Of a stretch of DNA of 62,063 nucleotides, positions 1-26,178 are shown piece after piece. Within the stretch, counting starts at the first letter, position 1; every line of letters starts with the position of its first letter. Origin of the DNA: Chitinophaga pinensis. GTDB lineage: Bacteria > Bacteroidota > Bacteroidia > AKYH767-A > OLB10. Below the pieces are notes generated by a model. It was not told where the DNA came from, searched no databases, and saw nothing but the letters and a program-made list of their open reading frames with translations. The DNA is taken from positions 1 through 62,063 of the forward strand of contig CALQOD010000003.1 of NCBI GenBank assembly GCA_943332105.1, written 5' to 3'. The position numbers were made by a program, and so were the translations under genes.

Positions 1-7
1 AATAGAT

Positions 8-233
8 TTGCGTCATAATTGCGTCAATTGCACCATAGTTGCATCAACATTGCACATTGACTGCCCAATAAATGACTCAATTGCTCCAGTAAAATTTTAA
101 GCAACTTTTGGAAATGGCGTATATAATGAAGTTTTGGCGGATATATGGCGGATAAATAATGGGCTCAAAGGGCTCATGATGGACTCAAGAAGGGCTCAAT
201 ACTATTTGCAAGCACGTTTGCAACTATTTGTAA
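8..233. repeat. Phased short-repeat array (several 9-mer families at 11/9-bp spacing), non-coding
   Basis: TTGC-type units start at 8,19,28,39,50,(61),(72),81 (spacings 11,9,11,11,11,11,9). TGGCG at 115,135,146. GG(G/A)CTCA at 161,170,181,192. ACTATTTG(C/T)AA at 201 and 223. No ORF in the track; plus-strand frames hit stops. Confidence 0.85.
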
Positions 234-266
234 AGAAATATAAATTAGGTCTAAAAAATTAACCCC

Positions 267-638
267 CTAATTTTTTTCATTCTCATCATTAATCTCCTCC
301 ACCTTCTCCTCACTCACCGGCATCACCACCGTACTCGATTTAGGTTGTGATAAGGGTTCGCTTTCGAGGGTGTATTTGACAATGTCGTTGGTGTCAGGCA
401 GGTCTTTGGTGACGTCGCCTTTAATTTTATTGATCTCTTTTTCTGCTTCGCGTAAACCTCCTTTTAATTCGTCTTGCACGCCGTTCATCGCGTCTTTGAC
501 TTCACGGATTCCTTTGCCTAATCCACGAGCAATACCAGGAATTTTATCAGAGCCAAAAAACATAAGTATGAAAAGTAAGATGACCATTACTTCTCCACCA
601 CCAAGGCTTTCGAGGAATAAAACAACTGATAAATTCAT
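267..638 (-). CDS. tatA: Twin-arginine translocase TatA/TatB family subunit
   Basis: N-terminal GGGEVMVILLFILMFFGSDKIPGIARGLGKGIREVK: TM helix, FG hinge and amphipathic helix. Confidence 0.88.
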   Translation of the reverse strand: MNLSVVLFLESLGGGEVMVILLFILMFFGSDKIPGIARGLGKGIREVKDAMNGVQDELKGGLREAEKEINKIKGDVTKDLPDTNDIVKYTLESEPLSQPKSSTVVMPVSEEKVEEINDENEKN

Positions 639-6379: not shown

Positions 6380-6910
6380 ATGAATAAGCCATTGGTAGGA
6401 ATCATTATGGGAAGTAATAGCGATTTACCTGTTATGCAAGAGGCTGCAACTATTTTGGAGCAGTTTGGTGTTGCGTATGAAATGACTGTTGTTTCGGCAC
6501 ATCGTACACCTGAGCGAATGTTTGATTATGCAAAGCAAGCGGATAAAAAAGGGATTAAAGTTATCATCGCTGGTGCTGGTGGTGCTGCTCACTTGCCTGG
6601 AATGGTTGCATCTGTTACACCTTTGCCAGTAATTGGTGTTCCAGTTAAATCAAGTAATAGCATTGATGGATGGGATTCTATTTTATCAATCTTACAAATG
6701 CCGAATGGTGTTCCTGTTGCAACAGTTGCTTTGAATGCTGCGCAAAACGCAGGTATTTTAGCAACGCAAATTTTAAGCACCGGCGATAAAAAATTATTGA
6801 AGAAAATATCCGACTTTAAGAGCGGTTTAAAAGATAAAGTATTGAAGGCGGCGAGTGACATGGAGAATACTGCTAAAGCGATGAAAGCACCAAAGAAAAA
6901 AACAAAGTAA
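6380..6910 (+). CDS. purE: N5-CAIR mutase
   Basis: [32 protein letters not shown]. Confidence 0.97.
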
Positions 6911-6967
6911 TTTAATTATAAACAGTAAAATCCTTTCCATTTTCAAAGGGGGACGAATTAATTTTTT

Positions 6968-7753
6968 ATGAAAACACTATTGATAACGGCAGGCATTGCC
7001 GTAGGGATTTTATCCTCAATTATTTCAAACGCTCAAGTGCAGCCAGATTGGAAAGGAGTTTTTTCCGAATTGGAAGTATCGCCGCATCAAGCAATTTCGA
7101 CAAATGTTATTTCTATAAGGTCCGATAGCTTATGGCATGCAGGATTGTTTTGTTATTCTCCTGGAGGAATTAAGGAATTAAACAAGCAAACTATTTATTT
7201 ACAAAAGCGAATTCGACCAAAAGAGCAGTTAAGGTGTTATTATGAAACAAGGAGGTTTCATGAGTATGCCGAAAATTCGCTAGTAGTTGGATATGCGAAA
7301 AAATATAGCAATTTATTTTCTGCAGGTTTGACAATTAATTTTCAATCGCAAAAGTTTAGCAACGATTATTTGATTAAATCTAAGCTGCTTGTACAACCAT
7401 CGTGTTTAATTCAACTTAATGAAAAGGTGAGTACTTATTCTTGTTTGTCGTTGGCTACCTATAAAACTACAAAAAGAATTGATCATTTAGTGTTTGCGTT
7501 ACGCTATGATTATAGTAAGTCAATTGCATTAAATGTTGATGCTTGTTTATCGAAGGTAACTGCCGATTGTTTCATTGGTATTTCTTACTTTACTACGGAT
7601 GACTTTAAAATGCAATTGCGTTTTGATTGTTTGTCGGCAGCTACGGCTTTTCAGATTGCTTATACTAAAAAACGAATGGGTTTTGTGTTCGGCTCCAAGT
7701 ATAATTATCTACTTGGTTTATCTCCATTTGTAGGAATTACAACACAACTATAA
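6968..7753 (+). CDS. Hypothetical exported protein, probable outer-membrane beta-barrel
   Basis: Signal peptide and alternating hydrophobic/aromatic strand pattern; 1 nt upstream of the next ORF. Confidence 0.6.
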   Translation: MKTLLITAGIAVGILSSIISNAQVQPDWKGVFSELEVSPHQAISTNVISIRSDSLWHAGLFCYSPGGIKELNKQTIYLQKRIRPKEQLRCYYETRRFHEYAENSLVVGYAKKYSNLFSAGLTINFQSQKFSNDYLIKSKLLVQPSCLIQLNEKVSTYSCLSLATYKTTKRIDHLVFALRYDYSKSIALNVDACLSKVTADCFIGISYFTTDDFKMQLRFDCLSAATAFQIAYTKKRMGFVFGSKYNYLLGLSPFVGITTQL

Positions 7754-7754
7754 T

Positions 7755-9731
7755 ATGAAGAACATTTTACTTTTACTTGGACTAATCAGTTGTGATTTTA
7801 TTCAAGCGCAGAATAATATTTCTGATTTAAGTGTAACTATCAGCGATGATGAATTGGTAAATGCCAATTTTCAAGATCAGTTGTTTGTAGATAGTGTTGA
7901 CTATTTGAAAATAAATTTTGCCAATAGAGATGAGTTACTTCAATCTGGATTTTTCATATGTTTGGAAGTAGATTCGATACTTAATTACCGAAGCAAATAC
8001 GGCTATTTTTATTCGTTGGAGGAGATGCAAGCATTAGATATTATCGCGCTCAATCGATTGGAAAAATTAAAGTCAAAAGTATCTTTTGAAATACCGGTTT
8101 CGATGTCTGAACTGGTAGATTTAAAAAAGCTAGATGGAAGTGTGGTAGCTCGAATTGCCACTCCTTTTTCGAAGAGTGAAACTGCCGAAGATTGGATTTA
8201 TAAGGGAAATAAATACCGAGAGGCTATTGGAATTAAAATAAATGCTGGAGAAAAAATCAACTTTGTGTTAAACGCAGAAAAAGATGCAGGTGAAGCATTT
8301 CAGTTTGCGAAAAAAGTTAAGGGCTTCGACTTTATTTCATCGCATCTAACGATAAAGAATATCCGAAGAGTAAATAAAATTTCGATTGGCGATTATCAAA
8401 TTCAATTAGGACAAGGATTAGTAATATTTCAAGGAATGTCGTTGGGGAAAACATCAGATATCGCCACCATCCGAAAGCAAGAAATCGGAATAAAAGATTA
8501 CAATGGAATGTCGGAGTTCGGATTTTTTAGAGGAATGGCCATCGATTATAAAATAAAAAAAATAAAAATTATTAATTGGGCTTCCTATAAAAATCAGGAT
8601 GCAACTATTTATTCTGATAGTTCAACGGGAGATTATATTCAATCGATAAAAACAGATGGCTATCATCGAACTGATTTAGAACTCGAGCATAAAAATAGTA
8701 TTCTGCAAATGGTTGTTGGTTCATCTTGTTCAATGTTGGTTAGAAATACAACAATCGGTTTGAATGCTATTTTTACATCAAACAGTATTACAATAAAATC
8801 TAATAACGATTATTACAACTACTATGCTTTCAGAGGAAAGAATAGTTTTAATCAATCAATTTCTTATTCGGGCACTCGAAAAAACTTTAATTATTTCGGC
8901 GAAGCTGCAATTGATCAGAATTTATCGCCTGCAATTGTCAATGGCATCATTGCAAGTATCGAAAAGAATTTTTCTGTGAGTCTATTACATCGATATTATT
9001 CCAAAAATTATTTTTCATTTCATTCGAATGCGTTTGGAGAAAATAATAAAGTTGCTAATGAAAACGGATTTTATGTGGGAGGTAATTATAGTTGCAATAA
9101 AAAAATCCAACTTAGCGCTTATTACGATTTGTATTCATTTCCATGGTTAAAATATCAGCTAAGTATGCCTTCTTTTGGACATGATTATTCATTGCAATTT
9201 ATTTATACGCCTGCAAAAATTACAAGCATTAGTTTGCGTTATCATCAAACAAGCAATCAAGAAGAAGTAGTAGGAAGCGATGATCATACAGCTGATATTA
9301 ATGAAACTACTACAAGGTCGTTGCGATTTCAATTACGCACAGAGCTTAATCGTTTGCAAATTACGGGTAGGTACGATTTAACATTTTTAAAACAGCAGAC
9401 CAATGAATCGGGAATGTTAGCTTATTTAGATATTCAGTATAAACCTATGATGAAACCTTATTCATTTTCAATTAGGACTAGCATTTATCGAACAGATTCA
9501 TATTCAACAAGAATGTATGCCTATCAAAGCGATTTACCTGGTTCCTATAATTTGGGGGCTTTTTATGGGAATGGAGAGGCTATTTATCTAATGGTTCATT
9601 ATAAACCCGCCAGAAATTTGCATGTATGGGTTAGAGGTAGCCGAGCTCTAAGTTATTCGCAACTCATTGATAATAAGAATGTATTCCCTGAATACGAGTT
9701 AAAAATGCAGGTAGCCTATAAATTTCATTAG
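7755..9731 (+). CDS. Helix-hairpin-helix (ComEA-like) domain protein with predicted C-terminal OM beta-barrel
   Basis: Signal peptide; KINFANRDELL...ILNYRSKYGYFYSLEEMQAL (HHH_3-like); GDYQIQLGQGLV motif; strand-rich C-terminus ending QVAYKFH. Confidence 0.75.
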   Translation: MKNILLLLGLISCDFIQAQNNISDLSVTISDDELVNANFQDQLFVDSVDYLKINFANRDELLQSGFFICLEVDSILNYRSKYGYFYSLEEMQALDIIALNRLEKLKSKVSFEIPVSMSELVDLKKLDGSVVARIATPFSKSETAEDWIYKGNKYREAIGIKINAGEKINFVLNAEKDAGEAFQFAKKVKGFDFISSHLTIKNIRRVNKISIGDYQIQLGQGLVIFQGMSLGKTSDIATIRKQEIGIKDYNGMSEFGFFRGMAIDYKIKKIKIINWASYKNQDATIYSDSSTGDYIQSIKTDGYHRTDLELEHKNSILQMVVGSSCSMLVRNTTIGLNAIFTSNSITIKSNNDYYNYYAFRGKNSFNQSISYSGTRKNFNYFGEAAIDQNLSPAIVNGIIASIEKNFSVSLLHRYYSKNYFSFHSNAFGENNKVANENGFYVGGNYSCNKKIQLSAYYDLYSFPWLKYQLSMPSFGHDYSLQFIYTPAKITSISLRYHQTSNQEEVVGSDDHTADINETTTRSLRFQLRTELNRLQITGRYDLTFLKQQTNESGMLAYLDIQYKPMMKPYSFSIRTSIYRTDSYSTRMYAYQSDLPGSYNLGAFYGNGEAIYLMVHYKPARNLHVWVRGSRALSYSQLIDNKNVFPEYELKMQVAYKFH

Positions 9732-23497: not shown

Positions 23498-23550
23498 TTC
23501 CAAAATATAAATGAATTTTGTTTTGAAACAAATACATTAAAAGAATTTCG

Positions 23551-23570
23551 CGTCACTAATTCGTCACTAA
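23551..23570. repeat. Tandem CGTCACTAA x2 at 11-bp spacing (integrase arm-site-like)
   Basis: Identical 9-mers at 23551-23559 and 23562-23570. Confidence 0.75.
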
Positions 23571-26100: not shown

Positions 26101-26103
26101 CTG

Positions 26104-26178
26104 TGGGAGCACACGGGTTCGAACCGCGGACCCTCTGCTTGTAAGGCAGATGCTCTGAACCAGCTGAGCTATGCTCCC
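26104..26178 (-). tRNA. tRNA-Val (anticodon TAC), CCA not encoded
   Basis: GGGAGCA/TGCTCCC acceptor stem, GCTC/GAGC D-stem, TCTGC-CTTACAA-GCAGA anticodon arm, CGCGG-TTCGAAC-CCGTG T-arm. Confidence 0.97.

Follow-up and report, generated by a model that had tools for sequence, protein, structure and literature searches.

The left end of a 62,063-nt stretch of contig CALQOD010000003.1 from Chitinophaga pinensis (Bacteroidota; assembly GCA_943332105.1), hereafter the window, carries a succession of short, phased direct repeats at positions 8-233. Window positions 1-266 are free of coding sequence. The spacer to which they belong is 382 bp long and separates tatA (267-638, minus strand) on the right from a gene convergent with it on the left, an open reading frame (ORF) of 243 aa whose stop codon ends 117 bp left of position 1, as read from contigs L001-L008, which encode an identical TatA and extend the window leftward. 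The product of this ORF has a HATPase_c_4 domain and corresponds to the C-terminal two-thirds of proteins of ~376-421 aa, in which SLFN_AlbA_2 is followed by HATPase_c_4 (a GHKL ATPase domain, PF13749) and a C-terminal helix-turn-helix (HTH) domain. Below we argue that window 8-233 is probably the downstream part of a decaying locus of this Schlafen-GHKL-HTH ('Schlatpase-HTH') family of Bacteroidota, and that its repeat arrays are putative cognate docking sites for the family's own winged HTH domain.

An earlier note on this DNA had described the stretch as a concatemer of several 9-mer families, and all of these were found where it had placed them: TTGCGTCA at window 8 and 19, with single units TTGCACCA at 28, TTGCATCA at 39 and TTGCACA at 50; TGGCG(T/G)ATA at 115, 135 and 146; GG(G/A)CTCA at 161, 170, 181 and 192; and TTTG(C/T)AA at 205, 217 and 227. 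The 11-bp periodicity is also borne out, lag-11 autocorrelation being 0.456 versus 0.262 in dinucleotide shuffles (z=6.4, 0/1000 shuffles as high), with further excess at lags 20, 22 and 31 and depletion at lags 5-6. Since the periodicity exceeds that of shuffles and the sequence is identical in eight independent metagenome assemblies, the repeats are neither chance nor an assembly artefact; the 243-aa gene on the left stops short of the window.

The domain order of the full-length relatives equals that of the 'pSlfn HisKinase-HTH' class (PMC13056530) and of the 'Schlatpase + HTH' class (bioRxiv 10.64898/2026.05.29.728809); the copy beside the window differs in that the nuclease domain is missing. 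The link between Schlafen-GHKL ('Schlatpase') proteins and phage defence is recent, and an HTH domain is present in more than 90% of their C-terminal tails. In a SLFN-pAgo relative, ATP-dependent tetramers form through the GHKL domain (bioRxiv 10.64898/2026.05.29.728809). The AlphaFold2 model of a full-length protein is poor overall (mean predicted local distance difference test score of 52) and confident only over the last ~70 residues, where three helices and a beta hairpin make up a winged HTH with its recognition helix at residues 390-402 of protein P0025. Foldseek matches this C-terminal fold to the winged helices of ArsR, MarR, HlyU and TubR (3m9a), whereas ranks obtained with the whole model are weak because the model is poor outside the C-terminus. 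The focal gene is 5'-truncated: about the first 180 residues, that is the nuclease domain, are gone, and homology to full-length genes begins 6 nt before its GTG start codon.

What ties the repeats to this family is their position. In near and distant homologues alike, the stop codon marks the beginning of an array built from these short words; three contig sets showed this initially, and 80 metagenome loci (65-93% identity) did so afterwards. The genomic context of the 80 or more array-bearing loci is unrelated. The final 2-4 residues of the protein are in many cases encoded by the array itself (tails ...IGS-stop, ...KxGG-stop, ...SIAH-stop and ...ITPE-stop). Chains of at least three units follow 50 of 66 distinct family 3' flanks, compared with 5 of 170 flanks of other ORFs from these loci and 1 of 46 for ORFs of the window; the family flanks that have no such chain mostly carry TGGCGGATA arrays with a degenerate middle unit. 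A strict scan of 516 kb of loci placed 69 array hits between -25 and +400 nt of a family stop codon, and the five hits beyond this range were either these same arrays read from the opposite strand or one situated a little upstream of the range.

The geometry of the arrays is just as regular. Across more than 12 unrelated cores, unit spacing is nearly only 11 and 9 bp, in arrays of 3-6 units that typically run 11-9-11 or 11-9-11-11, so that cumulative offsets of 11, 20, 31 and 42 bp lie within 1 bp of the 10.5-bp helical repeat. Because this spacing tracks about 10.5 bp per turn, every unit would fall on the same face of B-DNA. Nearly all arrays point the same way with respect to their gene, with one class reversed (GTCAATT versus AATTGAC), and one Hymenobacter homologue, 42% identical, has a looser version of the array. 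The focal locus has the traits that define these arrays: an array starts at the stop codon of an SLFN-GHKL-winged-HTH gene, as seen for the array attached to the truncated gene (copy A, described below) and for the L140 and L141 flanks homologous to the window; arrays B, C and D of the window (Table 1) have 3-6 units at 11-9-11(-11), array D minus its first unit; and the core of copy A, ATTGCACA, matches the adjacent recognition helix, CSRNTASNDL.

Further evidence comes from the pairing of cores with recognition helices. The cores comprise ATTGCACA, TGGCGGATA, GGGCTCA/TTGGCTCA, TAACGCCA, ATTGCAYCA, ATTGCGYCA, TTGRCCG, GTCAAT, GGGCAA, CGACCGA, ATTGCGCA and TTGCCTC, and one recognition-helix and wing signature goes with each. 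Beside the CSRNTASNDL helix with its core ATTGCACA, the helix [TI]SDRTA[LS]RDL is paired with TGGCGGATA, [VI]SK[AP]TATRDL with GGGCTCA, T[TS]ERTASR[DE]L with TAACGCCA, VARMTATRDL with ATTGCAYCA and IG[RK]TTATE[ED]L with TTGRCCG. Two genes with 95-97% identity over residues 1-195 may be only 41-48% identical in the last 48 residues, and then have a different core; the DNA class tracks the C-terminal part of the protein rather than its body, and the nucleotide break lies at codon ~205, just ahead of the recognition helix. Recognition helix, wing and array are exchanged as one module. Within a class, identity at four-fold sites is 0.37-0.44, near saturation, yet about 3-3.6 exact cores are kept per locus, and information content is 1.6-2.0 bits per position in cores against 0.2-0.8 in spacers. 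Cores that remain exact and information-rich while four-fold sites are nearly saturated are under purifying selection.

The window itself holds not one array but several (Table 1). Copy A, which consists of the last codons of the 243-aa ORF and the first 100 downstream bases, overlaps the stop codon of the truncated gene and is cognate to its helix; it is the sole other copy of the window stretch, a tandem duplicate 157 bp away, and window 23-123 (copy B) is 81% identical to it. Arrays B, C and D have cores that are non-cognate to the focal gene's helix and are in this sense secondary. Window 8-45 (5-45 in a second comparison) is 90-92% identical to the L140 and L221 flanks, the match beginning one base before the end of the stop codon or just past it, and array B is apparently a relic of the array that stands behind '...YYEL-stop'-type Schlatpase-HTH genes. 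Arrays C and D together (window 112-188) are 96% identical to L141 1711-1787. This match starts in the last two bases of a stop codon that ends at 1712, likewise in L134, L142 and L143, and the L141 homology continues up to window 219; array C therefore reads as a relic of the array behind '...KxGG-stop'-type genes. Array D matches the cognate arrays of L169, L187, L205 and L206. The hairpin stump that follows has a full-length counterpart (~75 nt) behind the arrays of 12 other loci, with three covarying pairs and no Rfam match; examples are L169 4782-4860 and L141 1803-1880, and others lie in L143, L145, L139, L168, L174, L175 and L187.

Table 1. Repeat arrays and adjoining features at the left end of the window, in window coordinates.
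Feature	Position	Strand	Description	Basis
Array B	8..56	+	Five direct repeats TTGCGTCA, TTGCGTCA, TTGCACCA, TTGCATCA, TTGCACA; start-to-start 11-9-11-11; TTGCRYCA class	
Tail B	57..112	+	Degenerate units TTGACTGCCCAA, ATGACTCAA, TTGCTCCAG and AAAATTTTAAGCAACTTT; duplicated together with array B	Copy A/B alignment, L001 self-match
Array C	113..157	+	Units ATGGCGTATATA, (ATGAAGTTT), TGGCGGATATA, TGGCGGATAAAT; spacing 20(=11+9)-11 as in cognate TGGCGGATA arrays; TGGCGGATA class	
Array D	159..199	+	(T/A)GGGCTCA x4 (one unit GGACTCA); spacing 9-11-11; GGGCTCA class without its first unit	
Hairpin stump	200..215	+	TACTATTTGCAAGCAC, the first 13-16 nt of the conserved hairpin element (TTTGCAAGCACATTTAAAAAC...GTTTTTAAAAGAGCTTGCAAA), cut short here	
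Local re-duplication of the TTTGCAA word	216..241	+	GTTTGCAACTATTTGTAAAGAAATAT; no counterpart in other loci	
Hairpin AAATTAGG...CCTAATTT	242..273	-	Overlaps the tatA stop codon, then a T-rich run	Inverted repeat
tatA	267..638	-	123 aa, PF02416; neighbour gene, outside the array system	

The order of these elements is not peculiar to the window. The succession ATTGCACA, TGGCGGATA, GGGCTCA and hairpin recurs in L132, that of C, D and hairpin in L134 and L141-L143, and that of D and hairpin in L169, while other loci stack the classes otherwise. Since two of the arrays are homologous to the flanks of other loci from their stop codons onward, we take window 8-233 to be a stacked, now decaying record of replacements of the 3' module, the simplest history being one in which the helix, wing and array module would have been replaced repeatedly and the older arrays left behind. 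In L201 (781-930) an array of the ATTGCACA class is followed by the relic of an older C-terminal module (..EISDATASRDLKTLT-stop-LGVFKISESKGSGTFYEFD-stop) and then by TTAATCGCCTCA, which gives direct evidence that a new helix and array module was inserted ahead of an old one, and L201 is the only locus in which relic coding ends were found behind arrays. The earlier note's idea of successive events recorded in a stack is thus upheld in another sense than that of integrations, namely as several specificities in series, two of them homologous to other flanks. With a truncated gene and arrays that differ from strain to strain, the focal stretch is most likely a fossil locally, unless intact paralogues elsewhere in the genome still use the arrays.

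Covariation, modular exchange and core selection, observed together with homology, geometry and restriction to the gene's 3' end, suggest that the winged HTH binds the arrays. As each recognition helix goes with a repeat core of its own, an array would be the cognate docking site of the protein encoded next to it. We envisage that the winged HTH domains of one oligomer of four to five protomers would sit head to tail on one face of the DNA, and that the protein would be loaded in cis beside its own gene; the tetramers driven by the related GHKL domain would fit arrays of 4-5 units. On module exchange, the new module would replace the old coding end, the old array would stay downstream and arrays would pile up, as arrays B, C and D and the hairpin stump may have done behind a gene that has no nuclease half. 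The consequence of binding can be guessed at: it may be autoregulation, for example by a roadblock at the gene's own stop codon, or the tethering or silencing of a toxic tRNA nuclease. A multi-specific landing platform, another suggestion of the earlier note, is possible in this context, but it would serve winged-HTH paralogues and not integrases.

Several observations weigh against such docking sites. The related SLFN-pAgo was solved as a C2-symmetric tetramer, and an assembly of that symmetry should recognize inverted repeats, not direct ones; moreover, sites downstream of a regulator's own gene are unusual. Four non-Bacteroidota homologues have no array, so the protein family as a whole does not need one. 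Part of the covariation between helix and core could be linkage alone, the two being adjacent. The cores of secondary arrays are only moderately more degenerate than those of first arrays, which bears on whether they are fossils or still in use. Finally, two metatranscriptomes yielded only diverged tatA fragments and left the arrays uncovered.

Phased direct repeats of this kind have well-known parallels. In TubR-tubC, in ParR-parC of plasmid R1 (11-bp iterons) and at PhoB/OmpR boxes (11-bp period), winged-helix or ribbon-helix-helix proteins coat tandem direct repeats. The Schlatpase-HTH arrays resemble these systems in that short phased direct repeats are read head to tail by a small DNA-binding domain, here by prediction. 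They differ in that the spacing alternates between 11 and 9 instead of being uniform, in their many interchangeable specificities, in that the array starts in the stop codon of the reader gene, and in that there are no partition or replication genes nearby. In the RepA-CIS-oriR region of plasmid R1, the target of the protein lies immediately behind the gene that encodes it, an arrangement favourable to loading in cis; the Schlatpase-HTH arrays are similar in that the putative target lies just downstream of the gene, but their protein does not initiate replication, and the locus showed no features of an origin.

In a stronger form of the idea, the arrays would be cis-encoded DNA scaffolds that hold the Schlafen tRNA nuclease inactive in a DNA-bound, head-to-tail assembly, a 'safety catch' comparable to the guide-RNA filament of SLFN-pAgo or the multicopy single-stranded DNA (msDNA) cage of Retron-Eco1, and the interchangeable modules would reflect an arms race with phage decoy arrays. 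We regard this as conceivable though unlikely. Arrays with the same cores and 11-9 spacing do occur in viral contigs that have no Schlatpase-HTH gene: L234 4800-4880 has ATTGCAC x4 and then GGCTCA x4, GGCTCA arrays adjoin tRNA genes within clusters of 12 and 10 tRNAs in L237 (4890-4930) and L241 (2490-2525), respectively, and further examples lie in L231 (110-140) and L232 (6700-6725). Given that Schlafen nucleases cut tRNA, the position of viral arrays beside tRNA clusters is suggestive. The GGCTCA 11-9 pattern was found in 22 viral stretches, whereas a 12-8 control turned up in 9 and simple 10-10 tandem repeats in 73, and because the enrichment is only ~2.4-fold over the spacing control, a decoy role is speculative and no more than a lead. 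A viral scan for TTGCGTCA-N3-TTGCGTCA gave 114 hits with no common context, and the 25-nt unit common to copies A and B was absent from the viral contigs.

The most serious rival to DNA docking sites is a role at the RNA level, which we consider quite unlikely. Arrays that start in or at the stop codon have to lie in the 3' untranslated region of the mRNA of a tRNA-nuclease gene, unless transcription ends earlier, and there they could act as a pseudo-substrate or antitoxin, similar to ToxI, or as an autoregulatory site. The effector is an RNase-type Schlafen domain, array orientation to the gene is nearly constant, and many cores end in CCA or TCA, which to our eye resembles tRNA 3' ends; as in ToxI systems, a tandem repeat array lies next to an endoribonuclease gene. 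Against this, the 11-9-11-11 spacing follows the 10.5-bp repeat of B-DNA, and specificity covaries with a winged-HTH recognition helix. The classes TGGCGGATA, TTGRCCG and GTCAAT are unlike tRNA ends, one class (GTCAATT versus AATTGAC) has the opposite orientation, and the metatranscriptomes gave no coverage of the arrays. Units of 9-11 nt are also far below the size of known antitoxin RNAs: ToxI-type units are about 36 nt, structured and upstream of the toxin, whereas those described here are downstream and helically phased. Type III toxin-antitoxin RNA repeats proper, which have structured units of about 34-45 nt, were rejected on unit size and downstream position, and Rfam gave no match either in the window region or in 11 homologous loci.

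Next in weight comes the possibility, in our view improbable, that the arrays are not operators but recombination signals for the exchange of C-terminal modules, or hotspots of template switching. Module exchange is frequent, its right-hand junctions fall at the first unit or at the old stop codon, and the ATAA/AA spacers common to all classes could give microhomology. A common machinery, however, should need one core instead of more than 12 helix-matched ones, the cores are under purifying selection within each class, and among the genes annotated around homologous loci no recombinase is a regular neighbour. It is very improbable that the arrays are a neutral, minisatellite-like product of slippage, functionless at any level: adjacent units are more alike than distant ones, copy number varies between co-occurring strains and the arrays behind the truncated focal gene may be drifting, but the non-uniform 11-9-11-11 geometry recurs family-wide with unrelated cores, which are kept although synonymous sites are near saturation, and arrays occur only at the 3' end of family genes.

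The identification of the 9-mers as arm sites of a tyrosine integrase or excisionase (Xis) at an integration hotspot, or as a decoy platform for such enzymes, which had been the original suggestion, is scarcely credible. Clusters of phased 9-11-bp direct repeats are typical of the arm and Xis sites of lambda-type attP, and in relatives the DNA behind tatA varies as at a hotspot and includes partial tatA 3'-end duplicates. The suggestion fails on context, however: gene lists covering 10 kb to the left and to the right include neither an integrase nor a tRNA or tmRNA, and what lies left of position 1 is the truncated gene of the SLFN-GHKL-winged-HTH family; there is no core site or attL/attR pair, and no second att-like copy bounds an element, the sole copy being the tandem duplicate 157 bp away. 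Relatives with other cargo in the hotspot have no repeats, and the repeats follow the Schlatpase-HTH gene, a different gene family, wherever it is located; no integrase was found in the annotated neighbourhoods of homologous loci. Two other candidates were also rejected. The only near matches to the DnaA box TTATCCACA are TTATCCGCC, with two mismatches, which are TGGCGGATA units on the other strand, and since these units follow Schlatpase-HTH genes in many genomes, an oriC reading was dropped. Iteron or centromere repeats were set aside, no Rep, ParA/ParM or TubZ genes being present in the neighbourhoods examined.

The comparison of tatA downstream regions that the earlier note had called for was informative in another way. 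Nine related-species loci (Phosphodiest protein 88-96% identical) keep tatA but carry quite different DNA behind it, and relatives with a 91-97% identical tatA have none of these repeats downstream and share no sequence with the focal island. As their downstream DNA is without homology to the island, the repeats arrived with the cargo and are not a feature of tatA. Behind tatA, L009 (4770-5671) has a HepT-like RNase and an MNT nucleotidyltransferase, a toxin-antitoxin pair; L012 (2940-3545) has MNT alone; and L011 (8080-8700) and L017 (1275-1850) have a two-gene module that resembles a toxin-antitoxin pair, with no confident Pfam match. The cargo of L009 and of L012 is followed by part of a second tatA 3' end (about codons 85-123). 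The tatA 3' end thus behaves as a variable hotspot at which small cassettes of the toxin-antitoxin or defence type insert, and no integrase was seen there. The hairpin at its stop codon (Table 1) is likely the tatA terminator and the right-hand limit of the inserted material, although a simple scan for Bacteroidota and sigma-70 promoters and terminators did not call it and gave nothing above shuffle expectation. Left of the window, L001 11846-12436 encodes another island protein (196 aa, C-terminal Pmp3 domain), flanked by ~360 bp and ~500 bp of unassigned non-coding DNA, beyond which a conserved TetR/RND efflux operon resumes.

Some further observations concern variation at the locus and in the family. 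Array copy number is polymorphic in the population: a contig of a lake metagenome (run X3) has 28 nt (GTGGTGGATAAATTATAGACTCAAAGGG) in place of window 125-183 (59 nt), and this co-occurring strain variant thereby has fewer TGGCGGATA and GGGCTCA units in arrays C and D. Contigs L006, L007 and L008, from three independent assemblies, end within or just left of the repeats (window about -33, about -21 and 54), which is consistent with strain heterogeneity or repeat-induced breaks. Split or frameshifted family members are common (L132 182-1498, L220 7820-9143, L336 275-1598 and L334 2900-3720), either as a 57-67-aa AlbA_2 ORF followed by one of ~376-380 aa or as a 196-aa ORF followed by one of 243 aa, and databases hold many ~240-aa 'short forms' whose start is the GTG of VKIGRF. 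Frequent pseudogenization of a toxic gene could account for these forms, as could errors of sequencing or a programmed event. L169 has a group II intron (Rfam RF01999, RF00029) at 6593-8393, 2 kb downstream of a homologous locus.

Three smaller claims about the window stood only in part. The right-hand units do begin with TTG on the minus strand, but this has no meaning, since arrays of homologous loci run in the direction of the gene. The palindrome at 81-104 is present in tail B, but it is not kept in the diverged copy A. A 9+2+9 geometry was said to recur near 23551-23570 beside a tRNA island: a two-unit repeat (TTCGCGTCACTAA / TTCGTCACTAA) does exist at 23541-23570, in the spacer behind a 135-aa ORF, but it is single, lies beside unrelated genes and is unlinked to the array family. 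There is no tRNA island here, because the sole tRNA of the window, a tRNA-Val at 26103-26178, is 2.5 kb away.

In summary, both the protein family and the reading of phased direct repeats by winged-helix proteins are already known; what appears to be new here is that an array obligatorily stands at the stop codon, that it is exchanged together with the recognition helix and that old arrays are stacked. None of these three was turned up by full-text literature searches or by term searches of the two Schlafen papers, in which the terms likewise found no gene-adjacent DNA repeat array and no HTH DNA target (PMC13056530; bioRxiv 10.64898/2026.05.29.728809). For genome annotation, the arrays account for a class of odd phased repeats and for assembly breaks at them. 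If they are indeed HTH targets, each Bacteroidota member would have its own operator written alongside it, and the more than 12 helix-core pairs would constitute a ready-made recognition code. They would also offer a handle on how Schlatpase nucleases are silenced or regulated, and an example of a specificity module, helix plus site, that is swapped as a unit and leaves behind a readable stack of old sites.
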